64,000 nt of DNA from a bacterium. Lineage in GTDB: Bacteria; UBA10199; 2-02-FULL-50-16; JAJFLM01. Each line of letters begins with the position of its first letter. The stretch's first letter is position 1. This document shows positions 27,385 through 56,496 of the stretch, piece after piece. The translations under genes were made by a program, and so were the position numbers. The stretch is taken from contig CBDCFN010000016.1 of assembly GCA_965216315.1 (NCBI GenBank), positions 320,001 to 384,000 on the forward strand, given 5' to 3'. Under the pieces are notes generated by a model. It saw only the letters and a list, made by a program, of their open reading frames with translations, was not told the origin of the DNA and made no database searches.

Positions 27385-27936
27385 ATGACATTAGCCGCAA
27401 TTGAACCCAAAGCCCTTCGCGTTCAGACAGGAGCCCCCTCGACCCCCAAAGGTCCGGGTTTCTCTGAAATCATGTCGGCTTTGGCGCCTGCGGCGGCTGA
27501 AAGCACTGGGCTCGCGACGAATAATGCGAATGCGGCTTCCCTGACGCACGCAGCGCTTACGGGCGCGGCAGTGGCGGCGGGTCCTCAAACGGGGGCCTAC
27601 GGTGGGACTTATGGGATGAGTACGCAGTCTCCTTTCTCTTCCGCCGGATACGGCGTTCCCGACAGCCTCGGGACCGGTTATTCGAGTGGAACTTACGCCG
27701 CGGGTGGCTCCACCGGCGGTTTCGGCGCAGCTATTGGCGGGGGCTCAGGCCTTCCGACCGATCCCTTCATGCAGCAGGATTATCTACTCAATAAAATGCG
27801 TGATACCAACATGCAGATGATCCAGATTCAGGCCTCGATTCAGCACGAAAACCGGCGCTGGACGACCAATTCAAATATCTTAAAGGCAAAACACGATACG
27901 GAAATGGCTCAAGTGCGGAACTTCCGGGTCACCTAA
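27385..27936 (+). CDS. Putative needle/filament subunit (SctF-like C-terminus, Gly/Ser/Ala-rich N-terminal extension)
   Basis: C-terminal QIQASIQHENRRWTTNSNILKAKHDTEMAQVRNFR resembles SctF C-terminal helices; lies upstream of a TPR chaperone and sctJ. Confidence 0.6.
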   Translation: MTLAAIEPKALRVQTGAPSTPKGPGFSEIMSALAPAAAESTGLATNNANAASLTHAALTGAAVAAGPQTGAYGGTYGMSTQSPFSSAGYGVPDSLGTGYSSGTYAAGGSTGGFGAAIGGGSGLPTDPFMQQDYLLNKMRDTNMQMIQIQASIQHENRRWTTNSNILKAKHDTEMAQVRNFRVT

Positions 27937-28029: not shown

Positions 28030-28042
28030 GGAGGAAGCCTGT

Positions 28043-30530: not shown

Positions 30531-30546
30531 TGGCACAAATACTGCA
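30531..30546 (+). promoter_or_regulatory. Sigma54 -24/-12 promoter
   Basis: TGGCACAAATACTGCA (GG-N10-GC). Confidence 0.75.
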
Positions 30547-30582
30547 TCTTCATCCTGTACGAAGCGAAGGAGTCAAAATCGG

Positions 30583-39399: not shown

Positions 39400-39408
39400 G
39401 GAGTTTCG

Positions 39409-39675
39409 ATGGATGCCTATATAATCAGCATTTCGCGTCAAACTCTTTATCTGACCTTGATCCTCACCGCGGCGCCGGTGGGGGCCGCCTTGATCGTCGG
39501 TCTCGCCGTCAGCCTCCTGCAGGCGACGACACAGATCCAAGAGCAGACCCTGACCTTCGTCCCTAAGCTGGTCATCGTCTTCGTGCTGCTCTCGGTATTA
39601 GGACCGTGGTCGTTTTTTCAGGTGGTCGCCTTTATGAATAGCCTGATCGAGAACATCCCACAGGTGATTAAGTGA
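39409..39675 (+). CDS. sctS: Export apparatus SctS/FliQ
   Basis: VGLAVSLLQATTQIQEQTLTFVPKL. Confidence 0.95.
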   Translation: MDAYIISISRQTLYLTLILTAAPVGAALIVGLAVSLLQATTQIQEQTLTFVPKLVIVFVLLSVLGPWSFFQVVAFMNSLIENIPQVIK

Positions 39676-39689
39676 AGCGGAGGTGATCG

Positions 39690-40552: not shown

Positions 40553-40579
40553 GCAACTTTGGGTCGCTCGAGGCGATAA
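40553..40579 (+). promoter_or_regulatory. Putative sigma28-like promoter GCAACT-N15-CGATAA
   Basis: Recurring motif immediately upstream of ORF 40590. Confidence 0.65.
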
Positions 40580-40589
40580 GCGGGTCGTA

Positions 40590-42743
40590 ATGGCTTATTT
40601 TATGGCGGGGGGGATTGCCACGACTCAGCTTGCGTCGGCTGGTGTCCCTGCCCTGAATTCAGGAATTTTATCAGCCCAGTTGCTCAGCCAACCGGCGGTC
40701 TTCGGCGAAATGGCGCCCGGAGCCCCGTTGGCCCTGTCGCTGCAAAGCCCTTATTCCCTGCAACGAACCCAGGCCCGCGAGAATGCCGCGACCGACGCGA
40801 CCTTTCAGGCCGCCGTTCAATTGTTGGACGATATTCAGCGTGGCGTTGATCCCGCGGAGGGAACGGCCGCCGCGTCATTGGATCGCGCTCGTGCGGCGAC
40901 CTTTGTCAGCCGCCTCCAGCGCGAGATCGATCAGGCCTTAGCGCAGACCGCACTCGGTGACCTGGCGGAACCGCTCCGCCAAATAATGACGCAGCATCCG
41001 GAGTTGGCGACTGCCGACCTGGCGACCTGGCGGGAAAATGACTTAGGCCGTAACTTTATCGAGCGCGTCAAAAATCTCTATCGTGAGCAATATTTAGGTT
41101 TTAGCGCCTTTCGTGCAACGACGCAGCTTCCCGGGACGGAGCAGGTTGCCGCCTTGGAAAATGCGGTGCGGGCGATCTATGGCGACGCCGGCCAGGCGCT
41201 GCTCTCCGAGCTGGCGCAAGAAAATCTCAGTGAACTCTTACAACGCGAGAGCTTGGCCGAGCGGGTTTCGCCGGAGGTGTTAGCCAGGCTTTTCCCCGCG
41301 GGACAGCCGCCGTTGACCGAGCGGTACCAAAAAATGGGTCACATGGCCCTGTTTGCGCGCTTTGTCGTGACGCAGCGTCAGTTCATGGAATCCCTCGTCG
41401 GTTCCCCGGAGCGCGTCGAACTCTTTTGGACCTTGCGTGGCTTGGAACTAGAGATGTCGCGACGGGATGATTTCGAGTCGGATGCGTTCAAGACCTTGAT
41501 GCGGCGGGTCCAGATGCCGGACTTAAGCCCCGTTGACCGGAGCCGTTATTTCGCCCTCCAAGAGGCTGTGGCCAAGAGTGGGGCGAATCCGGATCCAGCC
41601 CTCCAGGCGCAAGTCACCGAAGCGCTCCATTATTTTTCTCAGCGGACCGGTGAAACCGATTTAGCAACGGATGCTGGCCAGCATTTTGCCTACCGGGATG
41701 TCGTGCAACAGGTGGCGCTCCTGGCGCTCCGCGTCGGCGTCTCGGCGGAGGACATCAGACGGGAGACCAGCGGACAGGGGACGGCCCCATCGAATGAGCC
41801 GGTGACGCTCCAGCAGATTTATGACGGCACCCAGGTCGTGACCCTTGACGCACTGCCACCGGAAATAAAGGACATCCTTCGCGCCACGGGCCAGTGGGAT
41901 CTCGTCAATCAGGCGACGCGGCGGGTCATCCTCATGCCGGAGATCGCCTCGACGGACTACGTCAAGATGCTGGTCGGCTCGGCACCGAGCGGCCGGGGCT
42001 ATTTTGCCGACGGAACCCTGGTGATCTCGACCGCCCCGGACGGGCTGCGCTCACCGGTCTGGCGCATTGCCGGGTTGATTGCCCATGAAGCGGCGCATCT
42101 GCGCTCTTTGAATGGGATTATGGACAACCCGCAAGAGCTGATGGGAATGACCTCGAATGTACCTCAAGAGCGGGAGGCCTATGCCTGGGAGTCGAAGTTT
42201 TATCGGAGCTTTCTCAGTCGCTTTGGATCCCGCCTCAATGACGCGGATCGCGCCGCCATTGAGCAAACCGTTTTCAATACCGAGTCCATCGTCTATGCGA
42301 CCAATCTGCTCTTGAGCCATTCATTAGAGGACCTGGAGCCGGGGCGTGGGCTGCAGGCCGATCTGGAAATGCGGCGGTATGGCGGGCTGACCGTCGGGCA
42401 GTTGGATATCAATAGTTATCCGGAGCGGTTGCGGGACTTGATCGGGAGGATTGAGTTTAGTGGGGTCGACGGCATCCATCTCAGTAATTTGCGTTCCCGG
42501 CTGCGGCGTCGGATCGAAGATCTCGAACGGGCGCTCCAGGCGTCGCTACGGTTTCAACGCGAAGAGTTGGAGGCGCTGCGTCGGCAGACCGGATCCGACG
42601 CGCTCAGTCCCGAGGCGATTGCCGCCTTTGAGCAGCAGTTGACCGAGATGCCGGACGGGATCCGTCGGAGCCTTGAGGCCTATCGGCGGCAGTTTGGGTT
42701 GTTGGGGCAGGATAACGGGCATGCCGCGGTCAAACTTACCTAA
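40590..42743 (+). CDS. Putative effector with a zincin HExxH motif
   Basis: IAGLIAHEAAH plus downstream EREAY; Ala/Ser/Leu/Pro-rich N-terminus. Confidence 0.65.
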   Translation: MAYFMAGGIATTQLASAGVPALNSGILSAQLLSQPAVFGEMAPGAPLALSLQSPYSLQRTQARENAATDATFQAAVQLLDDIQRGVDPAEGTAAASLDRARAATFVSRLQREIDQALAQTALGDLAEPLRQIMTQHPELATADLATWRENDLGRNFIERVKNLYREQYLGFSAFRATTQLPGTEQVAALENAVRAIYGDAGQALLSELAQENLSELLQRESLAERVSPEVLARLFPAGQPPLTERYQKMGHMALFARFVVTQRQFMESLVGSPERVELFWTLRGLELEMSRRDDFESDAFKTLMRRVQMPDLSPVDRSRYFALQEAVAKSGANPDPALQAQVTEALHYFSQRTGETDLATDAGQHFAYRDVVQQVALLALRVGVSAEDIRRETSGQGTAPSNEPVTLQQIYDGTQVVTLDALPPEIKDILRATGQWDLVNQATRRVILMPEIASTDYVKMLVGSAPSGRGYFADGTLVISTAPDGLRSPVWRIAGLIAHEAAHLRSLNGIMDNPQELMGMTSNVPQEREAYAWESKFYRSFLSRFGSRLNDADRAAIEQTVFNTESIVYATNLLLSHSLEDLEPGRGLQADLEMRRYGGLTVGQLDINSYPERLRDLIGRIEFSGVDGIHLSNLRSRLRRRIEDLERALQASLRFQREELEALRRQTGSDALSPEAIAAFEQQLTEMPDGIRRSLEAYRRQFGLLGQDNGHAAVKLT

Positions 42744-42887: not shown

Positions 42888-42914
42888 GCAACTATTCGTC
42901 GATCGAGCCGATAA
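42888..42914 (+). promoter_or_regulatory. Putative sigma28-like promoter GCAACT-N15-CGATAA (GCCGATAA -10)
   Basis: Canonical sigma28 -10 GCCGATAA; weaker copies at 42761 and ~42856. Confidence 0.75.
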
Positions 42915-42937: not shown

Positions 42938-44413
42938 ATGGGCAGTTATAGCATTTCAATTAGCGGCGCGCATACCCAGACCCTGACCGGGTCGGTGGCC
43001 ATCACGCGGGATGGGAATTTTACCGCGACGGAGCATGGCGCGGCCAAAACCGCCGTCCGTCAGGCCCTCGTTGCGGCAGGCTATTTCGATGGCGGGGGCG
43101 GCCGCTGGTATAAAGATCTTAATGGCGATGGCAATTATACTGCCGATGAGCGCGTCAATATCAGCGTTTCCTTATCCGGCGGCAGCGGTGCGAATTCCAC
43201 CGAGTGGAGCGGCGGGATTGGGACCCTGATGGGGGGAAGTCCTCCGACGGCCATCCCGATGTCCGGGAGTGGCGATACCAACGGCGGCGGTGATACGAAT
43301 GGGACGAACAATGGCACCGGCAATGGCAGTGGCGGTCGGCGTGGGAGCGGAGGACGTACGAGCGGTGGCGGTGGGACGAGTCGCACGACGACTAGTGACC
43401 CCAGCACCTGGACCGGCTATCCGATGCGCATCCGCGTCAAAAAGTCTGATGGGACCTGGGGCGAGTGGCGCACGATCCCTCACGGCCAGGATAACAATTA
43501 TGACGCGAGTGATGCCGAAATCCGCCAGTTGCTCGGGGTTTTGGAAAACGATGATACCGGAGACATGAATGCCCAGGTTCAGGTCGAGTATCAACGCAAT
43601 GGCAGTTGGGGACATGCGGATTCCTTCGATCAATTAGGTCCCCTCTATACCCGGGCCGGGATGGTCCGCCCGGGGGCGACGTCGGGGATGGGCAACGCGA
43701 CGATCAGTTACCGGGATGGCTCGCGGACACGAACGGTGACGGTGCAGTACCGTCTCGATCCCAATTCTGAAGGGGATGTCAGTCACGCCGAGGCGACGCG
43801 CATTCAAGAAATTTTTCGCAACATTCCCGGTTATCAAAGCAGCTGGCGGATCACGCAGGTGCAAGCGGAGGGCAAGACCCTGAATGCCGGTGCTTGGGCG
43901 AGCCGCCTGAGCCCGGATTATCGCTCGCCCAACAGCTCCGGGACTCCCGACGATTTTCTCGATGATTCCTTGAATCGCGGTTTTCTGGCCCGTTTGAGTC
44001 GCAACCGGCAGAGTCGCCGGGCGGAACAGCGGCGTTTGACCGCCATGTTGAATAATCTCCTCAGAGGCGGCCGGCTGAACTGGCGGACCTTCTTAAGCTA
44101 CATCAATCTCAGTGCGATGCGGCGCGAGGCCGTCGTGAACGAGTCCTTGAGCTGGGCGGTGCAGAGCCTGTCCGAAATCGAGGCCCGCCAGGGTGAACTC
44201 AATACCGAATTGCGCGGGCTGAGTTCGTCGGACCGCAACCGCTATACCTCGAGCATGACGCGCATCAACAACGAGCTCAATGAGCTCTCCGGGCAGCGTA
44301 ATTCAATCATGAGCTTTGTCCGCGACTCCAAGTCGGTCTCTGATGAAGGGAAGGAACTCGCGAAGAGTCTCTACGCCGAGCTCCAGCAGGAAGAAATGTT
44401 GATGCGCTTCTAG
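42938..44413 (+). CDS. Putative T3SS substrate, paralogue A (shared C-terminal helical module)
   Basis: Gly/Thr-rich linker, DLNGDG motif; strong similarity to 44685. Confidence 0.75.
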   Translation: MGSYSISISGAHTQTLTGSVAITRDGNFTATEHGAAKTAVRQALVAAGYFDGGGGRWYKDLNGDGNYTADERVNISVSLSGGSGANSTEWSGGIGTLMGGSPPTAIPMSGSGDTNGGGDTNGTNNGTGNGSGGRRGSGGRTSGGGGTSRTTTSDPSTWTGYPMRIRVKKSDGTWGEWRTIPHGQDNNYDASDAEIRQLLGVLENDDTGDMNAQVQVEYQRNGSWGHADSFDQLGPLYTRAGMVRPGATSGMGNATISYRDGSRTRTVTVQYRLDPNSEGDVSHAEATRIQEIFRNIPGYQSSWRITQVQAEGKTLNAGAWASRLSPDYRSPNSSGTPDDFLDDSLNRGFLARLSRNRQSRRAEQRRLTAMLNNLLRGGRLNWRTFLSYINLSAMRREAVVNESLSWAVQSLSEIEARQGELNTELRGLSSSDRNRYTSSMTRINNELNELSGQRNSIMSFVRDSKSVSDEGKELAKSLYAELQQEEMLMRF

Positions 44414-44432
44414 GCAGTGCACGCTGTCCCCC

Positions 44433-44616
44433 GCAACTGGAACTAGAACCCCCACGAAAACACTATGTCGGAGAATTTTAAGCGGACATCTGGGGTCTGT
44501 AGACCTCAAATCCCGGTCCCCTGGACCCGATTTCGTTGATCCCGGGCCGCCGTTTTAATTGTAAGTATTTGAAATTATAAAGGAAATTATTTCCGCCCCT
44601 TGGCATGAAACTTGCT
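44433..44616 (+). promoter_or_regulatory. Composite promoter: sigma28-like (44433-44460), UAS (44491-44508), IHF-like (44562-44574), sigma54 (44601-44616)
   Basis: GCAACT-N16-CGAAAA; TGGGGTCT-GT-AGACCTCA; TTTCAAATACTTA on the minus strand; TGGCATGAAACTTGCT. Confidence 0.75.
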
Positions 44617-44684
44617 ACTTAATTGGGCGGAGACCAAGGGTCCGTGAGGACCATAACAGACGCTAGAATTTATTAGGAATAACG

Positions 44685-46067
44685 ATGGCAACGGCATCAT
44701 TTACCATAACCTATACGAAAAACGGCACTCAGCACACGGCCAATATCACCACGGGTGAACTCGATCGCAACGGTGACGGTCAGGTAACGGCTCGTGAAGT
44801 TGATGAGGCAGTCTCTGCGGCGATCCGCGACTACCGGGTTGATGGTAATCGGGTATTTAACTGCGCGGATAGTGCGACGGCGATTACTGGCCGTTCCGGC
44901 GTAACCATTGATAGTCGCAGTGATGTGACGCTTTCCAATTTGACCGGGCATACGAGTTTTACAATGCCGGCGGTGCTCAATCGAAGTTCTTTATCCGCAC
45001 CGGTCCGGACGAGCAACGCGAGCGATCACTCGACCTGGACCGGACGGCCGATGCGCATCCGCGTCAAGAACGCCGATGGTTCCTGGGGACCGTGGCACGA
45101 GATTCCGCACAGCATGGACACTAATTCTGCCGTGAGTAACGAGGAGTTAGCCCGGTTGCTTGGCACACTTCCCTCAAATGAAACCGGTAATATGGGTGCC
45201 GATGTCCAGATTCAGTACCAGAATTCGAGTGGGCAATGGCACCGTTCCAGCGTTCATAATGAGGACTTGGGCAATCTCTATCCCCGCGCCGGCGTGACCC
45301 CGCCGGGAACCGGTGATGGCATGGGCTGGGCGACTATTAAATATCGGGATGGTAATAATACCCGGACGGTTCGTGTCCAGTACCGCTTGGACCCGAATTC
45401 GCCCAACGACGTCAACCACACCGAGGCGACCCGCATTCGAGATGTTTTTCGCAATCTACCCGGTTACCAAAGCTCTTGGCGCATCACCGAGATCCAGGCC
45501 GAAGGCCAGACTTTGGATGCCGGTGGGTTCGCCAGTCGTCTGAGTGATGACTATGTCTCGCCGAATAATCCTAATAATCCGGATAACCCGGATGACCCGA
45601 ACAATCCGGTCAATGGGGCGATTACGCGTAACCTGACCGAGCGCTTGGGCCGGAGTCGTCGCAGCAGTAAGGCGCAGCAGCGGCAGATCACGATGATCCT
45701 GCAGAGTCTGCTTAGAGGCGGTAATCTAAATTGGCGGACCTTTTTGAGCTATATCAATATGAGTACGATGCGGCGTGAGGCCGTGATGAACGAGGCCCTG
45801 ACCTATGCGGTCCAGAGCCTGTCCGGTCTCGAACAGCGCCAGAGTGAGCTGAATACCGAATTGCGTGGCCTGAGCACGAGTGACCGGAACCGCTATACCT
45901 CGAGCATGACCCGCATCAACAACGAACTCAACGAGCTCTCCGGGCAGCGGACGGCGATCATGAACTTTGTCCGTGACTCCAAATCCGTCTCGGATGAGGG
46001 CAAGGAACTCGTCAAGAGCCTGATGGCCGAGCTGCAGCAGGAAGAAGCCCTGATGCGTTTCGCATAA
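44685..46067 (+). CDS. Putative T3SS substrate, paralogue B
   Basis: DRNGDG motif, PNNP/PDNP repeats; central and C-terminal domains closely similar to paralogue A. Confidence 0.75.
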   Translation: MATASFTITYTKNGTQHTANITTGELDRNGDGQVTAREVDEAVSAAIRDYRVDGNRVFNCADSATAITGRSGVTIDSRSDVTLSNLTGHTSFTMPAVLNRSSLSAPVRTSNASDHSTWTGRPMRIRVKNADGSWGPWHEIPHSMDTNSAVSNEELARLLGTLPSNETGNMGADVQIQYQNSSGQWHRSSVHNEDLGNLYPRAGVTPPGTGDGMGWATIKYRDGNNTRTVRVQYRLDPNSPNDVNHTEATRIRDVFRNLPGYQSSWRITEIQAEGQTLDAGGFASRLSDDYVSPNNPNNPDNPDDPNNPVNGAITRNLTERLGRSRRSSKAQQRQITMILQSLLRGGNLNWRTFLSYINMSTMRREAVMNEALTYAVQSLSGLEQRQSELNTELRGLSTSDRNRYTSSMTRINNELNELSGQRTAIMNFVRDSKSVSDEGKELVKSLMAELQQEEALMRFA

Positions 46068-46090
46068 TCTAAGTTATTGATATTAGGGAG

Positions 46091-46118
46091 AAAGGCGGCC
46101 TTCATGGCCGCCTTTTTT
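46091..46118 (+). terminator. Rho-independent terminator
   Basis: AAAGGCGGCC-TTCAT-GGCCGCCTTTTTT. Confidence 0.85.
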
Positions 46119-46123
46119 ATTGC

Positions 46124-46274
46124 TGGGGCCCTCAGCCCCCATATCCCCGCCTCCAGACCCCAGGGAGTGGGGTATTCAGGGCCTAATTTTTTGGCTTCAA
46201 ATTGTATAATCCCCTGATTTTAGGTATCATTTACTTAGTGCCCCTCTCCGGCGGAGGTTGGCATGGGTCTTGCA
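46124..46274 (+). promoter_or_regulatory. Sigma54 promoter with UAS array and IHF site
   Basis: UAS-like copies at 46124, 46145 and 46168; AATCAGGGGATTA on the minus strand (46207-46219) fits WATCARNNNNTTR; TGGCATGGGTCTTGCA at 46259-46274. Confidence 0.75.
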
Positions 46275-46296
46275 TCTTAAGTCCGCGAGGACCTCT

Positions 46297-48132
46297 ATGG
46301 ATTTATGTTTGTTTGATAACAGCGCGATCGTTCTTGTCGGGAAGCAGGCCGGACTCTTTGACGTGAGTCATCCGGGCAGTGTCGGTGCCCCAAGCGGTCC
46401 GCAGAGTTCAGTTCAGAACCAGAGTACCTCCAGCTCCGGCGAGGCCCCGCAGTACGAAGCCAAGGTCGAAACCCCGACTTTATTGAGTCCGGAAGAAGAA
46501 GCCGCACTGGCCGACCAGAATTTACGCATGAGCAACGCGAATGTTGACCCCAACAAAGCTGCGATCCAGAGCAATCTGCAGGAGAGTAAACTTATTCATA
46601 AAGAGCAGATCACCTGGTTGGAGCACGTCCTGGGTGCGGATGTCGCCAAGGCCCTGCGCAGTGCCAATAAAGATAGTCTTCGCAATATTTCTGATGTCGC
46701 CCGCATTGTTTATGAAGTGACCGGCGGCGATCTCAAGGCCGTTCAAGCCCTGTTGAATAAACTGCACGCGATCAAGTCATCACTGCCCCGCGAAGCCCGC
46801 GCCGATCTCGATGCAATTACGGGCCTCATTGGAGAGATCGAGACCCGAGCCGCAGCGGATGGATTGAAAATCAGCTCTAGTGCTTCCACGCACGATCAGT
46901 ACAAGGCCCGCTCGGCTGAACTGGAGCAGGTGATCACGAAGCTGCAAGACAAGCTGGCCACGCTGCTCCCCAAAGAGCTCGCCGCTCAGTTGAAGAGCCA
47001 AGGATTTTTAGGCGTCGGTGTGGCCAAGAAGGTCAGCGACGCGATTACCAAGAAATTTGATGCCCAGCTCAAGGAGCTGCGTGCCGAACTCAAGGCGGCC
47101 AAGGACGCCGGCAACAAAGAGCGGGTCCAGTTAATCAAGTCGAAAATCAGCGATGTCCAGGCCAACCAAAAGCAGGCCCTGCAGCAGGCCCGCATTCTCG
47201 GCAAGGTCCTGCAGGCCGGTGACCGGGCGCTTAGCTCCGAGAATCTCGAGCAGATCAATCAATTTTTTAATCTTATTGATGCCCCGCGCGGTGGTGCGCA
47301 GGAAGGTATCCAGGCAGCGGTTCTCAATCTTGATGAGGTCCGTGACCTCGATCAACTCGAAGGCATTGTCAATGTCGTGTTGAACGCCGAAGAGACCGCC
47401 CAGGCCGGGACGCAGTCGACCGCGCATTCCGGTGACGCCGGAGCGCCGCAAGAGTCGTCTTCGGGCGCCGGCATTCAGTCTGCAGGCGGTACCGGTAACG
47501 ATGAGCCGGTCGACGAAGCCGAGATGGCCAAAAAAGTTTTAATGGAAGAAGGCCAGGACATCGAAGGCCAGGGCAGCGGTGCCGGGATTCAATCCGAAGG
47601 CGCGACTGCCGAAGAGCATGCCGAGATCCAGGGTGACTGGATGGGCCTGACGCAGGCCGAGATGGGCATGAAGATCGCCAGTTCGAGCGTCGTGATGGGG
47701 ATTACCTCGTCGTATTACCGCGGCCGCTCGGACGAGCGCAAACTCAAGGGCATGATCGACAAGTTGATCGCCGCGATTTCACGCGGTGATCTCGATGCGA
47801 TCAGTACCGCTCTGATCCTGATCGGACGCCGCTCGCAGGAGAGCCTACGCAAGGTCTCCCTGACGATGATCAAGGCGATGAAATATTATGAAGAACAGCA
47901 GTCGGGCCTCAATGATGAGCTGGAATCCTTGACCCGTGATATGGGTCCGACCTTTGGTGCGGATATGCAGGCGATTAACAACAAGATGAATATGTACTCG
48001 AGTAATCGCCAGGCCCTGATGTCGATGTTCCGTGATACCAAGGCGCAGGTCGATACGATTGAGAATTTAACCAAGTCGATACTGGATATCGAAGGCCGGC
48101 AGAAACGCCAGCTGGCGCAATTCCAGGCCTAA
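46297..48132 (+). CDS. Putative T3SS substrate, paralogue C (coiled coil plus shared C-terminal module)
   Basis: ATG 46297 after GAGG (the TTG at 46258 overlaps the sigma54 promoter); YSSNRQA...RD.K C-terminal motif. Confidence 0.75.
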   Translation: MDLCLFDNSAIVLVGKQAGLFDVSHPGSVGAPSGPQSSVQNQSTSSSGEAPQYEAKVETPTLLSPEEEAALADQNLRMSNANVDPNKAAIQSNLQESKLIHKEQITWLEHVLGADVAKALRSANKDSLRNISDVARIVYEVTGGDLKAVQALLNKLHAIKSSLPREARADLDAITGLIGEIETRAAADGLKISSSASTHDQYKARSAELEQVITKLQDKLATLLPKELAAQLKSQGFLGVGVAKKVSDAITKKFDAQLKELRAELKAAKDAGNKERVQLIKSKISDVQANQKQALQQARILGKVLQAGDRALSSENLEQINQFFNLIDAPRGGAQEGIQAAVLNLDEVRDLDQLEGIVNVVLNAEETAQAGTQSTAHSGDAGAPQESSSGAGIQSAGGTGNDEPVDEAEMAKKVLMEEGQDIEGQGSGAGIQSEGATAEEHAEIQGDWMGLTQAEMGMKIASSSVVMGITSSYYRGRSDERKLKGMIDKLIAAISRGDLDAISTALILIGRRSQESLRKVSLTMIKAMKYYEEQQSGLNDELESLTRDMGPTFGADMQAINNKMNMYSSNRQALMSMFRDTKAQVDTIENLTKSILDIEGRQKRQLAQFQA

Positions 48133-48179
48133 ACGGCCGGAATCTGAATGTAGGGGCGCTGCTCGCCGCGCCCGGAAAG

Positions 48180-48208
48180 GCAACTGGAAGAGGCTTTTGA
48201 GCCGATAA
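48180..48208 (+). promoter_or_regulatory. Putative sigma28-like promoter GCAACT-N17-CGATAA (GCCGATAA -10)
   Basis: Recurring motif. Confidence 0.75.
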
Positions 48209-48232
48209 AATATTGTTGGAACTGTAAATACG

Positions 48233-50038
48233 ATGGAACTTTATCTTTCACATAGCGACTTACCGATCGTCCTGACCAGGCCGGGGCTGTTTGAGGTCCC
48301 TGTCGCAACGGTGGGTTCAGTCCAAACGGGTGGGACGCAGCCGACGGCGCCTGATGCAACGGTTGCGCAAGGAACGACGATCCCGACGGACGGGACGAAT
48401 GCCGGTCAATTGACGGTTCGCCGCGACACGGCCTGGCCGGAAGTTGGCAACGGTTCGGGACAGCTAGGTGTTCGTTATCGAGATGCTAGTGGTGCATGGC
48501 ACGACCTGCCAGGCTCTGCCATCACGCGGGGGGGCACCGACAATAGAGACCTGACGATTACCTTTCCGGAAACAGCTCGTACCGGGAACGTCGCTTACGA
48601 AATTTTTACAGGTTCGGGTGGATCCCGCACGTATCTCGCCGATGGAACGGCTCCCTTTGCGACGCGGACGGCGACAGATGGCGACGGGACGGCGCGTCCC
48701 GGGCAGACTCAGAGCCCTCCGACGAATGAGGCGCTTGGCTCTGTCGGTGGCGGTACGGGTGAAGACACACGGACCGCACTCAATACCTATGCGACCAATT
48801 TTGAGACCACGACAGGTCCCAACGCGATGCGTTCAATTTTTAATCTCGGGAGCGGTGTCGAATATTGGTCGAGTGGGACGACTTTAAATCCCGCTAATTT
48901 TGATCAAGCCGTGACGGACATGACTGCAGGTCGGGATCGGGTTCAAGCCCTGCGTGATACCGCGGTGTCCGATTTGGGCACGGCGACGACGGAGCTACAG
49001 CGTTTGGAAAATCTCCCGGCTGGCGAAAGACCTGCTGACTATGATACCCAATTATCAGCTGCTCGGACACGGGTTGAGACTTTGCGCACGCAGGTCCGGC
49101 AATATAGCGATTCTTTTGACGCGCATGTGCGTGGTCTGGGCCGAGCCTCTTCTTTCCGTACTATTTATGACGAATTCAGAACCGCACGGACGGCATTGGA
49201 TGGTGGTGATCCGACGCAAATGAGAGATTTTAGACAGCGCTATGATCGTCGTACGGTTGCGTCGTTAGGCAATGGGACCGTGATGGCAGGCATTACAAGC
49301 GGTAATTACACTGGCGAGCAGATCAATGCGGCGCGTACCGAAGTCAATCGGCCGGCCGGCGGTGGCAACGGCGGTGCCGGGACCCAGAGCGCCGGTTTCA
49401 CTAATACCGTCCACGGTATTAACCAAGGCATTAACGCCGTTGCAGGGACTGTCCACAGTGCGGCGAACGTGACGGATGCCCTCGGGCGTCTCACCCGTTC
49501 GTCAGCCAGCATTCCGCCGAACAGCGGCTTTGGCTATGGCGGTTTCGGTGGCGGCTATGGTTTCGGGGGTGGCTTTGGTTTCGGCGGTTTCGGACCGATG
49601 GGAATGATGGGACCGGTGGGTCAGCAAGACCAGCGTGAAGAATCTCGCAAGATCACGATGTTGTTGCAGATGTTGATGCATGCCATCCAGGCGGGGAATA
49701 CGGATGCGATCGGTACGGCCCTGACCTTCATCGCGATGCGCGGTAAAAAGACCTTGTTACAGGCGGCGGCACGCACCGTGCGGGCGATGGAATCTTTTGA
49801 GCGGCAGCAGCAGACGATCAATAATCAGATGGCCAACCTCAATGCCGAGGGCAATCGGAATTATCAGTCGCAGATGATGACCCTGACCAACGACATGAAC
49901 GTCTATTCTTCGAATCGTCAGGCCATCGTCAACTTCCTGCGGGACGTCAAAGGGATGGTCGATGAGCTCGATAATATGGATAAGAGCTGGCGCGATGTGG
50001 CGATCAGACAGCAGACGTCGTTGACTCGATTTGCCTAA
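48233..50038 (+). CDS. Putative T3SS substrate, paralogue D (Thr/Gly-rich, GGFG repeats, shared C-terminal module)
   Basis: YSSNRQAIVNFLRDVK motif; GFGYGGFGGGYGFGGGFGFGGFG tract. Confidence 0.75.
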   Translation: MELYLSHSDLPIVLTRPGLFEVPVATVGSVQTGGTQPTAPDATVAQGTTIPTDGTNAGQLTVRRDTAWPEVGNGSGQLGVRYRDASGAWHDLPGSAITRGGTDNRDLTITFPETARTGNVAYEIFTGSGGSRTYLADGTAPFATRTATDGDGTARPGQTQSPPTNEALGSVGGGTGEDTRTALNTYATNFETTTGPNAMRSIFNLGSGVEYWSSGTTLNPANFDQAVTDMTAGRDRVQALRDTAVSDLGTATTELQRLENLPAGERPADYDTQLSAARTRVETLRTQVRQYSDSFDAHVRGLGRASSFRTIYDEFRTARTALDGGDPTQMRDFRQRYDRRTVASLGNGTVMAGITSGNYTGEQINAARTEVNRPAGGGNGGAGTQSAGFTNTVHGINQGINAVAGTVHSAANVTDALGRLTRSSASIPPNSGFGYGGFGGGYGFGGGFGFGGFGPMGMMGPVGQQDQREESRKITMLLQMLMHAIQAGNTDAIGTALTFIAMRGKKTLLQAAARTVRAMESFERQQQTINNQMANLNAEGNRNYQSQMMTLTNDMNVYSSNRQAIVNFLRDVKGMVDELDNMDKSWRDVAIRQQTSLTRFA

Positions 50039-50066
50039 TTTTTGACCGAAAAAATGGAATTTTTAG

Positions 50067-50096
50067 AGGGTGGACCGGGTGTCCGCCCTTTTTTTT
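50067..50096 (+). terminator. Rho-independent terminator
   Basis: AGGGTGGAC-CGGGT-GTCCGCCC followed by a T-run. Confidence 0.8.
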
Positions 50097-50165
50097 GGCA
50101 AAAAACCCAAGGATTATTAGAACTTGTACGGCTCAGACGAAAATGTTATTTTATATCCAGAGGTT

Positions 50166-50810
50166 ATGGATTCGATGGCAAATCCGAAGGATACCGGTGT
50201 ACCCGAGAATCCCGCACCTGAAGGGGCAGAGGCCGGCCCGGAGGAGGTCTCCTTTGATGAGCTCGCCAATCAACTCGAGGCGGAGCTCAAAAAGGTGCCC
50301 CCCCAAAAGCTGGCAGAGGCCCAGAAGCAGGTAGCGGATTTTCTGGGGGGCGACCTGAAATGGGCCGATCTCGCCGATTGGACCCCCGAGAAGCTGCATG
50401 AGACCGCCAAGGAGGGCTACGCCCAATACGAGGCCGCCCAGTACGACCAGGCGGAGATCATTTTTAAGGGGCTGACCGTGCTGGATCCGGACAATTTCTA
50501 CTATCACCAGATGCTCGGGGCGTGTTTTCAGCAACAGAAGAAATTCGCCGAATCCATCGTCGAGTATTCAATCGCGGTCGATCTCAAGCCCGACGATATC
50601 ACCTCTTTTACCAACCGGGGCGAGGTCTACTATGAGCTCAAGCTCTGGGATCTGGCCGAACGGGATTTTAATGAGGCGATCCGCCTCGATACGACCGGAG
50701 GGGACCGCTGGGCCAATCGCTCCCGGCTGTTGTTGAAAAAGCTGGCGGGACTGCGTAGTACGCAACCCGTTGGGGCCTCTGAGCCGAAAATAGAAGCAGG
50801 AGATAAGTAA
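50166..50810 (+). CDS. SycD/LcrH-like TPR chaperone
   Basis: GYAQYEAAQYDQAEIIFKGLTVLDPDNFYYHQMLGACFQQQKKFAESIVEY. Confidence 0.8.
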   Translation: MDSMANPKDTGVPENPAPEGAEAGPEEVSFDELANQLEAELKKVPPQKLAEAQKQVADFLGGDLKWADLADWTPEKLHETAKEGYAQYEAAQYDQAEIIFKGLTVLDPDNFYYHQMLGACFQQQKKFAESIVEYSIAVDLKPDDITSFTNRGEVYYELKLWDLAERDFNEAIRLDTTGGDRWANRSRLLLKKLAGLRSTQPVGASEPKIEAGDK

Positions 50811-50813
50811 TTT

Positions 50814-51710
50814 ATGGCCATTGATATGCCAGGCATGCAGACCGGCGCTTCCGATGTGAGGACGCAGACGCCCCCTGTCGTGACGGAGGGGCTCCTTAGC
50901 GGTCAGGTCGCCCAGGAGATCCGTCAGCTGCTCAAGACGGACGTGACGGCCACCGATATGCTGGCCTATCTCTCGCAGCAAGCGACGCGCCTGGCCGATC
51001 TCCAGTCACCGCCTTCGATCAAGGCGATGTCCGCGGACATCCCGCCGCCGCCGGAAGATAGCCCGCTTTGGAATGAATCGGATCCGTCGATGCAGGTCTC
51101 CGATGTGGAGCTGCAGGCCCTTGATGAGTTTACCCAACAGATGGCGGGCATTGCCTCGGAAGGGGGCGATGCGAATGACGCCTGGCTCAACGGGGCGGAT
51201 AGCATCCTCGATAAACTCAAAGAACAATACGGGGATCCGCAGATGGCCATCGGTGACGGCGAGATGACCGGTGGGATCTGGGACTGGATGATGACCGGTG
51301 AAGTCAGTCGTGAGGCCGCTGAGGTCGATGACAGATGGCGTACCCTGATTCAGTCGTTGCTGGCGGATCCCAAGGCCAGTGCGGTTGATGTGCTGATGGC
51401 GATGGGCCAATATTTAACGGAGAAAAACGGGAAGGGACTGACCGAGGCCTTCAAGCTGTTTCACAATAAAGAAGTCGCTTATCAAGAGAATATGGCGGAG
51501 CTGGGCCTGGGCGAAAAGGCCCTCAATCCGACGGAGATGATGCAGGCGCAGGAAGAGATGCGCCAGTTTGGGATGGACTCCCAGATGGGGATGCAGGTGA
51601 TCCAGCAGTTCCGTCAGGACATCGACCGGACGCAGAACTACGTGAAGTCTTCCGCGACGGCGGTTCATCAGACGCTCCGAGCCATGATCCAAAACTACGC
51701 GTTACGATAA
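50814..51710 (+). CDS. Putative T3SS substrate, paralogue E (acidic N-half, divergent shared C-terminal module)
   Basis: Lies between two SycD-like genes; D..QN..KS C-terminal pattern. Confidence 0.65.
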   Translation: MAIDMPGMQTGASDVRTQTPPVVTEGLLSGQVAQEIRQLLKTDVTATDMLAYLSQQATRLADLQSPPSIKAMSADIPPPPEDSPLWNESDPSMQVSDVELQALDEFTQQMAGIASEGGDANDAWLNGADSILDKLKEQYGDPQMAIGDGEMTGGIWDWMMTGEVSREAAEVDDRWRTLIQSLLADPKASAVDVLMAMGQYLTEKNGKGLTEAFKLFHNKEVAYQENMAELGLGEKALNPTEMMQAQEEMRQFGMDSQMGMQVIQQFRQDIDRTQNYVKSSATAVHQTLRAMIQNYALR

Positions 51711-51761: not shown

Positions 51762-52364
51762 ATGGATGAGACGTATACGAGGGGTCAAAAGACGACAACG
51801 CGGGAACAGGACCCTAATCCTGACCGGGTAAAACATCTCGCCGAACTCCTTCATCGATTTGCCACCAATAAAATCAGTCTGGCCGATATCGCGCGCCTGC
51901 CGCGCAAAGAATTGCGACGCATGACCGAGATCGGTCATACCAAGCTCAAATACGGTCGTTACAAAGAGGCCTTAGAGATCTTTTCGATGCTCGCCAAGGT
52001 CGACCACAAAAACTATTATTATCGTTCCGCTCTCGGTGGTGTGTATCAGAAGATGAAAAAATGGATCGAGTCCCTGGCGAGTTATACGATTGCCCTCAAA
52101 CTCAATAAGAATGATACCGCCAGCCTCGTCAATCGCGGGGAGATTTTTTTGCGTCATGACAAGTTCAAGCGGGCCGCGGAAGATTTTCGTCGCGCCATCC
52201 TGACGGACAAGGCGGGAAAAAACCTATGGGCGAATCGGGCCCGCTCTTTGGTGATTGCGCTCAAGCGCAGCGTGGAAGCCAAGAAAAATGTGAAGAAAGC
52301 CACCCGGCCCGCCTTGCCGGCATCACGTAAGCCGGTGCCGCGGAGTGCGGGAAGAAGAAGGTAA
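51762..52364 (+). CDS. Second SycD/LcrH-like TPR chaperone (basic)
   Basis: GRYKEALEIFSMLAKVDHKNYYYRSALGGVYQ...NRGE...WANRAR; paralogue of 50166. Confidence 0.8.
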   Translation: MDETYTRGQKTTTREQDPNPDRVKHLAELLHRFATNKISLADIARLPRKELRRMTEIGHTKLKYGRYKEALEIFSMLAKVDHKNYYYRSALGGVYQKMKKWIESLASYTIALKLNKNDTASLVNRGEIFLRHDKFKRAAEDFRRAILTDKAGKNLWANRARSLVIALKRSVEAKKNVKKATRPALPASRKPVPRSAGRRR

Positions 52365-52421: not shown

Positions 52422-53819
52422 TTAATCGTTGTCGTTGAGGATCCCATATTTCTTGAGCAGATTGCGGATGTGCTTCCGGTCGATTCCAGCCTCGCGGGCG
52501 GTCTTGGAGATGTTGTAATTGTTGCGCCGGAGCAGGGCGGCCAGATAGTCCCGTTCAAAGGATTCGACGATCTTTTGCTTGGCCTCTTTGAAGGGCAGGC
52601 CGAGATCGACCTCCGGGAGTTTTTCAGTGACCTCGTCTTCTTCACGTTCCAACTCTTGAAAGACATAGGCTAAGTCCTGACCTTTGACGGAATCCCCGTT
52701 GACTAAGGGGACGACGCGCGAGAGGACGTTGACGAGTTCCCGGACGTTTCCCGGCCATTGATAACGAGTGAGCATCTTGAGGGCGTCATCTTCCACGCGC
52801 GTGACATGAAGGCTGCCATCGGGATTGCGATTGAAATCCCCCTCGGACAAGAAACGTTCGACCAGCATTTCGATGTCATCAGGGCGTTCGCGCAAGGGCG
52901 GAATGAAAATTTTGACGACGGAGAGCCGATAATAGAGATCCTCGCGAAAATTGCTATCAGCGACTTCTTTGCGCAGATTGCGATTGGTCGCGCAGAGCAC
53001 GCGGACATCAATGCTCACCGTATCGTTAGAACCGACCTTTTTGATTTGGCGTTGCTCTAAGGCGCGCAGCAGTTTCGGTTGCAGGTCCATGGAGAGTTCG
53101 CCGATTTCATCGAGAAAGATCGTCCCTCCAGTGGCTTCCTCAAAGGCCCCTTTGCGGGTCGACACGGCCCCGGTAAATGAACCTTTCATATGACCAAAGA
53201 GTTCCGATTCGATCAAATTTTCGGCCACGGCCGAACAATCGAAGACGACAAAGGGTTTATCTTTGCGGGGACTGTTGTCATGGATGGAGCGGGCAACGAC
53301 TTCTTTACCGACACCGGTTTCCCCTTCGATAATAACCGTCGCATTGGTAGGCGAGATCCGACTGAGGAGGCCGAAGATCTGGCGCATGCGCCGTGACCGG
53401 CCGATTAAACGCCCGAATTCGGTTTTTTCCGAGGGCTCCACCTGAACCTTTTCATCGAAAGCAATAAATTCAATGCGGGAGTTGCCGATGCGAATAATAT
53501 CGCCGGGGGCGAGATAGGCTTCTTTGACCCGCGTTTCGTTAATAAACGTGCCGTTAGTGCTCTCGAGATCTCTTAATAGAAAACTGTCTTCTTCCGGTAC
53601 GATTTCAAAGTGAGTCCGCGAGACCGCTCGGTCCTCGATGGCGAGTCCATTGTCCTCTTTTTTGCCGATCGTGATACGGTTGTCTTTAAGGTCCATCTTG
53701 CGGCCTTTGCTGGTCCCTTCAACGACTACGAGCTGGCATTTACGGAGACTGACGACATCCTTGTTTTCGTCGAGTCGTAAGAGTTGGGTATCACTCTCTA
53801 AGATTTCATTTTGCGCCAT
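52422..53819 (-). CDS. FHA-domain sigma54-dependent enhancer-binding protein
   Basis: N-terminal FHA (VSRTHF...STNGT), [36 protein letters not shown], Fis-type HTH. Confidence 0.95.
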
Positions 53820-53838: not shown

Positions 53839-56496
53839 TTAATTTTTTTGTAGCCGAACGTTATAACGTTTGTTTTTTTCGCGGCTCATATCGACGGATG
53901 TGGACCAAGGACGGAACCCGTTCATCTCCACGCGCAAGCTGTGTGAACGGTTGCGTGGGACCTTGCGAATCGTTACGGGAGTTCGGGCCCCGATGCGATT
54001 GCCATCAAAAATAACATCGGCTCGTGGGGGGATGGTTTCGACCTTGATCTCTCCAAACATGCCTTCTAATTTGATCGTACCTAAACTTTTCTTTTTGCCC
54101 CCCTGGAGGCTTACGCTTGATGAATGCTGCATAAATCCATCCTTACGCAGCATTACCGAGGCGCTTCCCGGACGGAGTCCGCTCACGGTGATCGGTGTCT
54201 TTCCTTTATACTCGGAGTTGACATAGACCTCGGCGCCGGAAGGGCTTGATCTAATCGACAGACTGGCCGGACGTCCTGAAGCGACGGGTTTGGGTGCCGG
54301 CGGCGGCGTATAGCGTGGCTCGGGTTTGGGCTCCGGCGGCGGAGTATATCTTGGTTCAGGCTTGGGTTTGGGCGTGGGCTTGGCCTCGCGAATCGGCTTT
54401 TCGACCGGCTTCGGTTTGGGTTTGGGCTCAGGTATTGCTTTGCCCTTGTCTAATGAGGCGATGAGCTTGTCGCCGGATTCTTGTTCGACCTTGACGCTCT
54501 TGGTGAAGACCTCATAGCCGCCTTTTTCCAGCTTGATCGTGTAAAACTTATCCAGCTCAAGGTTGTCGAGTTGGGTCGGGGTCACGCGCCCCGTATCCTT
54601 GCCATTTAAGAAGACCTTGGCCGCCCCCGGCTTGGAACGAACCACTAAAGAACCGAGCTTGGGAGGCGGAGGGGGCTCGGGTTTCTCTTCGAGCTTCGGA
54701 AGCTCAGGAAGTTTAGTCAAGGTAGCGCGGATATTGACCGGATTGAAATTGGCGATAGGAACCGTGCTGGCCCAATCACCGTAACCTTCCTTCTTTAAGT
54801 GAATCGCATAATCTTTTTTGATCTCAAGCTCGCCGATATCGGTTGGCGTGACCTTGCCCGTCTCTTTGCCGTTAAGCAGGATCGCGGCGCCGGGCGGATC
54901 CGATGAGATCTTGAGCATTCCTTCCGCGAGGGCCTGAAGGCTGACATGAACCTTGACGGGTTCTTCCGTCACGAGCGCGACGGTTTTTTCGTAGGGCTTA
55001 TAGTGTTCTCTTTCAATTGAGACTTTGTAGTCATCGCCAAGTGATAAGCGGCTTAAGGTCGCCGGTGTTGTTTTGCCGATGTTTTTTCCATTGAGCAGTA
55101 TCGTTGAATTAGAGGGTTCCGAGCTGACAATGATTGAGCCGTAATCAGCGAGGGGCGGCTTGGGTTCGGGCGGTTCGACGGGCTTTACGGGTTTGTCCGG
55201 GACTGTCGGTCCGACGAGTTCTTCCCAGAGCCCGCTGACTTTGTCGCCGATACCGAATTGGGACCAACTCAGATACCCGGCCGCGCCCAGTGCGAGGAAG
55301 ACGGCCAATATCATCCAGGGTCGCCTTCTTTTCGCCTGCTTGCGGACGATGGTGGGTTCGGGGACCGGAATGGCGCCGGCTTGGGTGGATTCATCGGTGA
55401 CGGATGATTCTTCATCAATTCCGATGTCAGTGCCCGTTCCGGCGTCTTTAATGCCGGCTTCCGTTCCCTGGCCTTCGTCCCCAACGAGGCTTTCACCGGT
55501 GCTGGCCTTGATCAGCAGTGAACGTGTTTTGTCGTCGACATGAGGTCCGCTCTCCTCGGTTGCTTTCATTTCTTTGTCAAAATAGTTTCGGACAAGAGAG
55601 GCGAGGTTGCGCGGTGAAAAATCGATGTACGAGGAATAAAGATATTTAGTGAGTTCGAGATGAAGGTCACCCGCCGTGGCGTAACGGTCCTTGGCATTGA
55701 AGGAAAGGGCCTTGGCGAGTATGGCTTTCAGCGGCCCGGGGATATCATCCGGCAGGTCCATTGTGTTGACGCGGGTCGTGCGGATTTTATTCAATACTTC
55801 AAATTGAGTCTCTCCGGTGTAGAATTTTTCGCCGGTCAACATTTCATAGAGAACGAGGCCTGCCGAGTAGATATCAGTCCGCCCATCGAGCGGTTTGCCG
55901 AGGGCTTGTTCGGGTGACATGTAAGCGATTTTGCCCTTCAGGACGCCGGCCATCGTGTGAGAGACGTTGAGTGCCGCTTTGGCGATTCCGAAGTCGACAA
56001 TCTTGACCTCGCCTTCATAGGAAATGAGGATATTTTGCGGGTTGATATCGCGGTGGACAATATTAAGCTGCTGGCCGTCGGGGCTCGATTTGCGATGGGC
56101 ATAATCAAGGCCCTTACACATTTCACTGACAGCATACACGGCAAGGTCTTCCGGCATCTTGCCCTCGTCGGAGGTCACCCGCCGGATAAGCTCGCGCAGA
56201 TTGGTGCCATGAATGAATTCCATAGAGATGTAGTAGTCATCACCGACTTTACCGAGGTCATAGACTTGAACGATATTGGCGTGCGAAAGCAGAACCGTTA
56301 GCTTGGCTTCATCAACCAGCATCGTGATGAAGTCTTTGTCGGCAGCGCAATGAGGGAGTATTCGTTTGATGGCGAGTAGCTTTTCAAAGCCGTCGACACC
56401 ATAAGTTTTGGCCTTGTAGATCTCGGCCATGCCGCCCACGGCAAGTTTGTCGATCAGCAGATAGCGCCCAAACTGTTTCGGTTCAAAATCGCTCAT
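53839..56496 (-). CDS. Membrane Ser/Thr protein kinase with extracytoplasmic PEGA repeats
   Basis: GGMAEIY, AIK, HRDINPQN, DFG, YMSPEQ; one TM; about 5 PEGA repeats with Pro-rich linkers. Confidence 0.95.
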   Translation of the reverse strand: MSDFEPKQFGRYLLIDKLAVGGMAEIYKAKTYGVDGFEKLLAIKRILPHCAADKDFITMLVDEAKLTVLLSHANIVQVYDLGKVGDDYYISMEFIHGTNLRELIRRVTSDEGKMPEDLAVYAVSEMCKGLDYAHRKSSPDGQQLNIVHRDINPQNILISYEGEVKIVDFGIAKAALNVSHTMAGVLKGKIAYMSPEQALGKPLDGRTDIYSAGLVLYEMLTGEKFYTGETQFEVLNKIRTTRVNTMDLPDDIPGPLKAILAKALSFNAKDRYATAGDLHLELTKYLYSSYIDFSPRNLASLVRNYFDKEMKATEESGPHVDDKTRSLLIKASTGESLVGDEGQGTEAGIKDAGTGTDIGIDEESSVTDESTQAGAIPVPEPTIVRKQAKRRRPWMILAVFLALGAAGYLSWSQFGIGDKVSGLWEELVGPTVPDKPVKPVEPPEPKPPLADYGSIIVSSEPSNSTILLNGKNIGKTTPATLSRLSLGDDYKVSIEREHYKPYEKTVALVTEEPVKVHVSLQALAEGMLKISSDPPGAAILLNGKETGKVTPTDIGELEIKKDYAIHLKKEGYGDWASTVPIANFNPVNIRATLTKLPELPKLEEKPEPPPPPKLGSLVVRSKPGAAKVFLNGKDTGRVTPTQLDNLELDKFYTIKLEKGGYEVFTKSVKVEQESGDKLIASLDKGKAIPEPKPKPKPVEKPIREAKPTPKPKPEPRYTPPPEPKPEPRYTPPPAPKPVASGRPASLSIRSSPSGAEVYVNSEYKGKTPITVSGLRPGSASVMLRKDGFMQHSSSVSLQGGKKKSLGTIKLEGMFGEIKVETIPPRADVIFDGNRIGARTPVTIRKVPRNRSHSLRVEMNGFRPWSTSVDMSREKNKRYNVRLQKN

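Follow-up and report, generated by a model that had tools for sequence, protein, structure and literature searches.

Which proteins make up the distal end of an atypical, non-flagellar type III secretion system (T3SS)? For early-branching or atypical systems of this kind the distal parts are unknown, and candidates are offered by a locus in a 64,000-nucleotide stretch of bacterial DNA (the window; contig CBDCFN010000016.1, positions 320,001 to 384,000, or G000:C16:320001-384000). The source genome (2.96 Mb, 16 contigs, 98% complete) belongs to a small-genome candidate phylum whose members may live on other cells. Near the end of a T3SS gene cluster in the window, five genes code for proteins, here called A to E, that carry related C-terminal modules. 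We propose, at what we judge to be an even chance, that A to E and a sixth copy elsewhere in the genome form a rare, unannotated family of exported, chaperoned distal parts of this T3SS, held by a helical hairpin module and with their variable domains exposed. That A to E are T3SS substrates is itself quite probable, in view of their genomic context, the adjacent chaperone genes, their regulation and their vertical conservation. The five genes are as follows.

42938..44413, plus strand: protein A, 491 amino acids (aa), module at about residues 344-491 (43967-44410); matched by the module hidden Markov model (HMM) (E value 6.6e-68) and by BLASTP.
44685..46067, plus strand: protein B, 460 aa, a paralogue of A, module at residues 313-460 (45621-46064); database representative P0002.
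46297..48132, plus strand: protein C, 611 aa, module at residues 464-611 (47686-48129); database representative P0003.
48233..50038, plus strand: protein D, 601 aa, with a GGFG tract at about residues 430-465, module at residues 452-601 (49586-50035); database representative P0001.
50814..51710, plus strand: protein E, 298 aa, acidic and predicted to be all-helical, with a remote module copy at residues 163-286 (51300-51671), found by hhalign.

All five open reading frames (ORFs) were confirmed, and every peptide quoted in an earlier annotation of the window (the original prediction) was found in their translations. A TTG codon at 46258 would extend C to 624 aa. The ATG at 46297 is the likelier start, because the full-length homologues P0007 and P0009 share the N-terminal motif of the ATG form; the TTG is overlapped by a sigma-54-type motif at 46259.

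The original prediction held that the five proteins have about 140 C-terminal aa in common and that, apart from the A/B pair, their N-terminal parts are largely unrelated. In an all-against-all BLASTP comparison the common C-terminus was clear for A to D. A and B are 61% identical across 375 aa, and E values were 5.9e-25 for C/D (over 133 aa), 4.9e-15 for B/D, 5.9e-9 for A/C, 2.1e-8 for B/C and 5.8e-7 for A/D; the module alignments spanned 133-151 aa and all reached the C-terminus. Protein E gave nothing significant against A to D by BLASTP (best E value 0.14), nor was it among the four matches (11 candidates scored, E value ≤ 10) when its genome was scanned in six frames with an HMM built from four sequences. 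Nineteen modules, 15 of them from related genomes and the other four from the window, were made into a profile, which was compared by hhalign with a second profile built from seven E-type proteins that occupy the equivalent position in relatives. These two profiles matched with a probability of 94.8% and an E value of 5e-8 over 124 columns, covering residues 163-286 of protein E. As a specificity control, the family profile of another helical protein of the T3SS locus, 183 aa in length, was compared with the module and gave 2.5%, which is no match. Protein E is thus taken to be a remote member of the module family, on the strength of the profile-profile match and the negative control. Similarity among the C-termini is therefore significant for A to D and extends to E at the level of profiles. 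Outside the module, weak local BLASTP matches alone were seen (B/D, E values 0.004 and 0.027), in agreement with the claim of largely unrelated N-terminal parts. The compositions were also as described: A and D are rich in Gly and Thr (the N-terminal part of A in Gly, Ser and Thr), the GGFG tract is present in D, and protein E contains 15.1% Asp plus Glu versus 7.4% Lys plus Arg.

To place the module among known proteins, the four-sequence profile was run against a database holding one representative per 50%-identity cluster (1,835,955,588 representatives, about 15 billion proteins). The family is rare: 88 representatives matched at an E value ≤ 1e-3, 68 at ≤ 1e-10 and 11 at ≤ 1e-30; the 88 include B, C and D. 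All ten representatives that were looked up in the clusters were singletons. A search for homologues of the D module returned three proteins, and one for the E family six, two of which are called "hypothetical protein [Deltaproteobacteria bacterium]" (NCBI, metagenome-assembled genomes). No family in Pfam or NCBIfam was assigned to A to E or to any of the members scanned, and the N-terminal parts contained no enzymatic domain detectable with these two collections; residues 1-310 of B had no usable match in a protein atlas search. The module matched no PDB family either.

The architecture is modular, as the original prediction had it. The module ends at most 8 residues from the C-terminus in 85 of the 88 representatives; the remaining three (P0057, P0068 and P0072) are long Cys-rich proteins with an internal module, two of them with N-termini resembling signal peptides. 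Short conserved motifs sort the N-termini into a few classes, "MELWGFE...PG..FGLF" (variants in C and D), "MSTxxVPxVxV" and "MATxxFTITY" (A and B), and the stretch between N-terminus and module can scarcely be aligned, even among close relatives. Identities of the N-terminal part and of the module, respectively, were 34 and 62% for D and 31 and 48% for C against orthologues from the same family, and 41 and 75% for A against its paralogue B in the window; the module is hence better conserved than the remainder of each protein. When the genome was searched with the 19-sequence profile, a fifth match beside those to A to D was found at G000:C16:1438056-1438424 (E value 8.6e-9), within the following gene.

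G000:C16:1437033-1438475 (L048:7034-8476), 1.07 Mb from the genes for A to E: sixth module paralogue, 480 aa; hhalign probability 94.1%, residues 354-464.

The N-terminal part of this sixth copy differs again; it contains a GDPH motif and has no Pfam match, and the genes around it are unrelated. Relatives likewise hold extra copies apart from their main pair (for example, genomes G074, G075 and G077).

The structure of residues 390-601 of D was predicted with AlphaFold2 from a 94-sequence alignment. The module was modelled with a pLDDT (AlphaFold's per-residue confidence score) above 90 as a long antiparallel hairpin with a short helix ahead of it, and the three helices span D462-486, D490-535 and D544-600 (25, 46 and 57 residues); the GGFG tract ahead of the module was predicted to be disordered. 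The most hydrophobic spot in nearly every family member is a helix-turn-helix at the start of the module (LLxAIxxGNxDAIxxALI). This element and a polar stripe on the last helix (N..MN..S..RQAI.N.LRD.....EE..N..KS) are the best-conserved parts. Hydrophobicity was low throughout: the highest 19-residue Kyte-Doolittle means were 0.61 (A), 0.64 (B), 1.42 (C), 1.24 (D) and 1.03 (E), compared with 2.21, 2.57 and 3.12 for the membrane proteins SctS, SctT and SctJ of the same locus. Among 92 family members the median maximum was 1.19 and the top value 1.81, with none of the 92 at 2.0. The scan found no Sec-type or transmembrane hydrophobic segment in A to E or in the 92 members, and the claim that a transmembrane hairpin is missing was upheld. 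As no member reaches 2.0, the family does not consist of classical membrane-spanning translocators; shallow or re-entrant membrane contact is possible.

What accompanies the module genes in related genomes? The phylum comprises 93 species genomes in a single class, all of them small (1.1-4.6 Mb). The 19-sequence profile matched 48 of the 93 at an E value ≤ 1e-3 and 34 at ≤ 1e-5, and the narrower four-sequence profile matched 9 of 41 genomes; a related-locus search in genome contigs found none. A common gene order was observed in the window and in loci L020, L021, L022, L024, L025 and L050: one or more module genes, a TPR gene (product about 190-230 aa), an E-type gene (287-322 aa, no Pfam match) and a second TPR gene (about 180-200 aa). 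The E-type gene sits between two chaperone genes in six relative loci that were fetched. Locus L023 has a module pair, one TPR gene and the activator described below, with another gene in place of E and without a second chaperone gene; loci L026, L027 and L028 are cut by contig ends. Each of the three genomes that make up the window's own family (the window's, L026 and L028) carries the A type, and B is a further duplicate found here. The core conserved across these loci thus comprises an E-type protein, a pair of chaperones and one or two proteins with the module. In the ancestral set the module proteins, one or two in number, would have been of C-type and D-type, accompanied by a single E-type protein and a pair of SycD-like TPR chaperones. 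The accompanying genes in the window are the following.

50124..50810, plus strand: TPR chaperone 1, 228 aa, SycD/LcrH-like (TIGR02552, E value 2.9e-21, 75.6 bits; TPR families in Pfam).
51762..52364, plus strand: TPR chaperone 2, 200 aa, SycD/LcrH-like (TIGR02552, E value 2.5e-19, 69.3 bits; TPR families in Pfam).
52422..53819, minus strand: FHA-domain sigma-54 activator (Pfam Sigma54_activat, 9e-69; FHA, 7.9e-18).
53839..56496, minus strand, beside the activator: Ser/Thr protein kinase with five PEGA domains (Pkinase, 2.3e-38; PEGA, 1.3e-70).

The SycD-like chaperones that had been noted beside the module genes are thus present as two TPR genes, both scoring below the TIGR02552 cut-off. Conservation is far stronger in chaperone 1 than in the neighbouring proteins: 40 columns are invariant across seven orthologues. 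The FHA sigma-54 activator adjoins the block in all four relative loci that were scanned for it (L020, L021, L023 and L024), and a kinase with PEGA domains is also present in L020, the sole relative locus scanned for that gene. Within the N-terminus of D, a chaperone-binding motif of the "PxLxxP-like" kind known from the translocator literature was considered and dropped, as it is not conserved across the family.

The 183-aa protein used as a control above is encoded within the T3SS cluster, ahead of sctJ.

27385..27936, plus strand: 183-aa protein, Gly-rich in its middle part and helical at the C-terminus.
28016-28459: TPR protein with weak CdsG, SctY and LcrH matches (CdsG, E value 8.1e-8, below the cut-off), followed by sctJ.

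The 183-aa protein is present in 30 of 41 genomes of the class and had no match to needle families in Pfam or the PDB; by its position it is a candidate needle or rod-like substrate. Its family profile aligned with the last helix of the E family (hhalign probability 47.5%, E value 1.9e-4, 56 columns, co-terminal). Similarity is consequently graded, since the 183-aa protein resembles E and E resembles the module of A to D, while the 183-aa family and the module gave the 2.5% reported above. Such a gradation, with E in the middle, suggests that these proteins may belong to an axial series.

The T3SS cluster itself extends from about 19 kb to 52 kb of the window; its parts were named with Pfam.

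19083-21218: SctV.
24707-26869: 720-aa FHA-PEGA-TPR protein, one of the FHA proteins in the cluster.
28456-29463: SctJ.
30511-31410: sigma-70-family protein with regions 2 and 4, inside the cluster.
31908-32918: FliG-like protein.
38343-40514: SctR, SctS and SctT.
40590..42743, plus strand: 717-aa protein containing an HEAAH motif, encoded between sctT and the gene for A; no Pfam family.

SctL, SctN, SctO and FliK/SctP-like, FliM-like, FliN-like and FliO-like proteins are also encoded in the cluster, and the genes for A to E come after sctQ, the fliO-like gene, sctR, sctS and sctT. A single gene for FlhB/SctU is present in the genome, elsewhere on the same contig. Two secretin-family matches were found in the genome, both distant from the T3SS locus and none within it, and no flagellar rod genes were found in the genome. 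From the single SctU, the missing rod genes and the distant secretins, the system is identified as a non-flagellar T3SS with several flagellum-like parts and without a secretin of its own in the locus. The HExxH motif of ORF 40590 is kept in all three members of its family (f1; the window protein and two orthologues), making its product a possible candidate for a secreted zinc metalloprotease. Two further ORFs of the cluster were noted in passing. One (31407-31895, 162 aa) overlaps the end of the sigma-70-family gene and has no family match; its product may act as an anti-sigma factor or belong to the inner rod. The other (29541-29996, 151 aa) contains one hydrophobic stretch (Kyte-Doolittle 1.78).

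Are the module genes controlled together with the rest of this system? Recurrent promoter-like motifs were found ahead of several of them.

42888..42914, plus strand: sigma-28-type motif GCAACT-N13-GCCGATAA, upstream of A.
48180..48208, plus strand: sigma-28-type motif upstream of D.
40553-40579, plus strand: sigma-28-type motif upstream of ORF 40590.
29487-29515: sigma-28-type motif upstream of ORF 29541.
44601..44616, plus strand: sigma-54-type motif TGGCAT-N5-TTGCT, 69 nt upstream of the B start, one mismatch to consensus.
46259..46274, plus strand: sigma-54-type motif TGGCAT-N5-TTGCA, 23 nt upstream of the C ATG, one mismatch to consensus.
50065..50091, plus strand: terminator-like stem-loop with a T run, after D.

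The motif ahead of A, D, ORF 40590 and ORF 29541 has the form GCAACT-N13-15-G(C/G)CGATAA, whose second half equals the -10 consensus of FliA/sigma-28 promoters. A genome search with the pattern GCAACT-N12-16-GSCGATAA gave 17 sites, compared with one for a reversed control pattern. In relatives, the motif precedes module genes (D-type or X-type) in L021, L022, L025, L028 and L050 and the gene for the 183-aa protein in L039, L042, L044, L045 and L046. Exact sigma-54-type sequences (TGGCAY-N5-TTGCW) occur in four loci of relatives: L028 has one before its C-type gene, L026 has one after its A-type gene, and in L050 and L049 they precede the single module gene. Over the whole window the sigma-54 pattern, with two mismatches allowed, was not enriched (35 occurrences versus 26.6 expected; 8 of 100 shuffles reached 35), so that the weight of these motifs rests on their position and conservation. 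A further terminator-like hairpin is seen after B. Judged by promoter motifs and terminator-like hairpins, each of A, B, C and D seems to form a transcription unit of its own, with two sigma factors serving the four, and the FHA activator and the kinase are likely inputs to transcription of the module genes. A PP2C phosphatase is encoded at 13038-13799, so that FHA activator, PEGA kinase, FHA-PEGA-TPR protein and phosphatase all lie in or around the cluster; kinase, phosphatase and FHA proteins suggest that phospho-threonine signalling feeds into the expression of T3SS genes. Of the 17 sigma-28-type sites, six precede tandem paralogues of 565-901 aa with long hydrophobic stretches (G000:C16:2161000-2180500, locus L059), in a cluster that also holds three smaller paralogues starting "M.CDLYGAS". 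These tandem proteins may be further T3SS substrates or membrane-inserting effectors.

How might such proteins work? From the conserved gene order, the block would correspond in position to a translocator/tip operon and not to the gene for a single filament subunit with swappable cargo. In the model that we favour, A to E would be made late, from the sigma-28-type and sigma-54-type promoters, under the sigma factor of the locus and the adjacent kinase/FHA-activator pair, and would be held in the cytoplasm by the TPR chaperones. Once out through the export gate, they would assemble at the far end of the apparatus by way of the helical module. Protein E would be the adaptor nearest to the needle-like 183-aa protein, and the variable domains would be exposed and contact the target cell; A and B would be lineage-specific extra copies with a different displayed domain. 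An extended version of this model, which we hold as tentative and rather doubtful, would make the module the assembly domain of an unrecognised axial series in secretin-less, non-flagellar T3SSs that retain flagellum-like parts. In that version the 183-aa protein, E and C/D would be successive, distantly homologous layers comparable to rod, hook, junction and filament, forming the "missing" needle tip and translocon of the T3SSs at present termed needleless, while A, B and the sixth copy would serve as exchangeable tips that present different recognition domains to prey or host cells. The locus provides a defined and conserved set of candidate distal proteins together with chaperones, promoters and a regulatory kinase/activator pair. 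If three protein types do share one assembly module, this would be a simple case of translocator- or tip-like parts arising by duplication of an axial protein, and the variable front domains would become candidates for target recognition.

Several results weigh against the proposal that A to E are distal parts of the apparatus. No significant match to translocator, tip, needle, EspA or flagellin families was obtained in Pfam, NCBIfam or the sequences of the PDB. Translocator families in particular gave none at an E value ≤ 0.1 with the full proteins or at ≤ 1 to 10 with the modules; the SctA tip families (LcrV, IpaD, SipD) in Pfam, NCBIfam and PDB sequences matched neither E nor the E-family profile, and the PDB sequence search with module, E-family and 183-aa-family profiles returned coiled-coil or chance matches only. 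The hhalign scores may be raised by the periodicity that helical profiles share. The model of protein E, built from ten sequences, is all-helical with helices of 40 and 57 residues, and is unreliable (mean pLDDT 48.9). Both TPR proteins fall short of the TIGR02552 equivalog cut-off of 104.8 bits and are to be regarded as related TPR proteins, not as equivalogs. Module copies outside T3SS loci, here and in relatives, would also fit effectors. A look for RNA runs that cover the region returned none. Lastly, the module profile matches 48 of 93 genomes versus 30 of 41 for the 183-aa protein, for which reason many systems may use other or more diverged distal proteins.

Comparison of folds does not help the choice. 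Foldseek found no PDB entry at an E value ≤ 1e-3 for the D module model (best, an SMC coiled coil at 0.25). With VIA-align, the top Z scores in the wide search and in a second look were 11.3 and 11.0, for a chain of a yeast histone deacetylase (HDAC) complex; YscO/CT670 and FliJ scored about 10, and residues 74-224 of IpaB 9.2 (root-mean-square deviation 2.8 Å, 105 aligned residues). None of these scores stands out from those of many unrelated hairpins, and none reaches the bar of about 13 for helical models. EspA, SctF, LcrV and flagellin were absent among the matches listed (50 rows per list). The fold is a generic long hairpin and therefore does not discriminate between the hypotheses; the helical nature of the module was predicted with confidence, and no structural relative among the filament or tip proteins emerged from the matches listed.

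According to the original prediction, the module polymerises in the manner of EspA, needle protein or flagellin, and the five proteins co-polymerise while displaying interchangeable domains. The long modelled hairpin, the conserved polar stripe on the last helix and the presence of several paralogues, as with flagellins, all point that way, as do the sigma-28-type promoters; in flagella, promoters of this type drive filament genes. Similarity to the needle model PF09392 also recurs below threshold, the best score being 18.6 bits (E value 0.0022; cut-off 29.4) on a C-terminal fragment of E. Two of 10 E-type and two of 19 module sequences match at an E value ≤ 1, together with noise (prefoldin and SNARE families, for example). 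When the whole genome was scanned in six frames, protein E was the sole match (E value 0.14), but six of 14 control genomes match at the same threshold, which puts these matches at noise level. No significant likeness to EspA, SctF or flagellin was seen, and what relatives conserve is not a single abundant subunit but a group of two or three distinct proteins plus a pair of chaperones. What stands of the original prediction is the conserved helical module, the modular layout, the missing transmembrane hairpins and the adjacent chaperones; a kinship with EspA, needle proteins or flagellin found no significant support in the sequence and fold searches, and co-polymerisation into a filament seems unlikely.

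The constant module carrying variable, rapidly diverging N-terminal domains would also be expected of effectors, in which the module would serve for chaperone binding, targeting or membrane association and the N-terminal parts would be the active domains. The copies outside T3SS loci (the sixth copy and those in G074, G075 and G077) fit such a view, and the HExxH protein and other genes behind sigma-28-type motifs extend the regulon beyond structural genes. However, no enzymatic domain was detected in the N-terminal parts, class II TPR chaperones serve translocators and not effectors in known systems, and the set of module, chaperone and E-type genes is syntenic and vertically conserved, as is typical of apparatus parts. 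We consider it improbable that A to E are effectors. Still less should be expected of the idea that they are highly diverged canonical translocators (SctE/SctB) inserting via the semi-hydrophobic helix-turn-helix of the module. Operon position, the SycD-like chaperones, the prominence of that element as the most hydrophobic and best-conserved spot, and the appearance of the IpaB coiled-coil domain among the structural matches would be in keeping with it. Yet the hydrophobic arms are just about 11-13 residues long, the hydrophobicity of the 92 members stays below 2.0, the IpaB match ties with many unrelated hairpins, and the module proved to resemble no membrane-inserting translocator either by sequence family or by a transmembrane segment. 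This explanation appears very unlikely.

In injectisomes, a class II TPR chaperone is encoded with SctE, SctB and SctA, as in ipgC-ipaBCD and lcrGVH-yopBD. The locus described here shares with such translocator/tip operons its location at the end of the T3SS cluster, two SycD/LcrH-like TPR chaperones, two larger proteins with one of about 300 aa, long coiled-coil hairpins (here as predicted) and fast sequence evolution. Unlike injectisome translocators, A to E lack a transmembrane hairpin and belong to no translocator or tip sequence family. All three protein types here carry one homologous C-terminal module, the chaperone genes come after their presumed clients and not before them, and extra paralogues (A, B and the sixth copy) are present, in each respect unlike injectisome operons.

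With the axial proteins of needles, EspA filaments and flagella (SctF, EspA, FlgK, FlgL, FliC) the family has in common a predicted helical hairpin with a putative role in assembly, paralogues with common terminal helices and, as in flagellins, a variable domain that would be exposed. Late expression from sigma-28-type promoters, as in flagella, is probably a further likeness, to go by the motifs. The resemblance to needle proteins is sub-threshold only, and the hairpin arms measure 46 and 57 residues here, whereas those of needle proteins are shorter. Needle proteins measure about 70-90 aa, a size that A to E do not share. Unlike in axial proteins, no conserved N-terminal helix was identified and the chaperones are of the TPR type.

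The system also resembles the "needleless" T3SS* of Myxococcus xanthus (PMC12075869; PMC3459982) in being non-flagellar and in having no secretin in its locus. The Myxococcus system is reported to be without a secretin, a recognisable needle or a translocon (PMC12075869). For tip and translocon proteins in general, Abby and Rocha (2012; PMC3459982) state that they could not be placed in the evolution of the T3SS, their sequences diverging too fast. Unlike the Myxococcus system, the one described here belongs to a different, small candidate phylum, and it comes with candidate distal proteins and class II chaperones.

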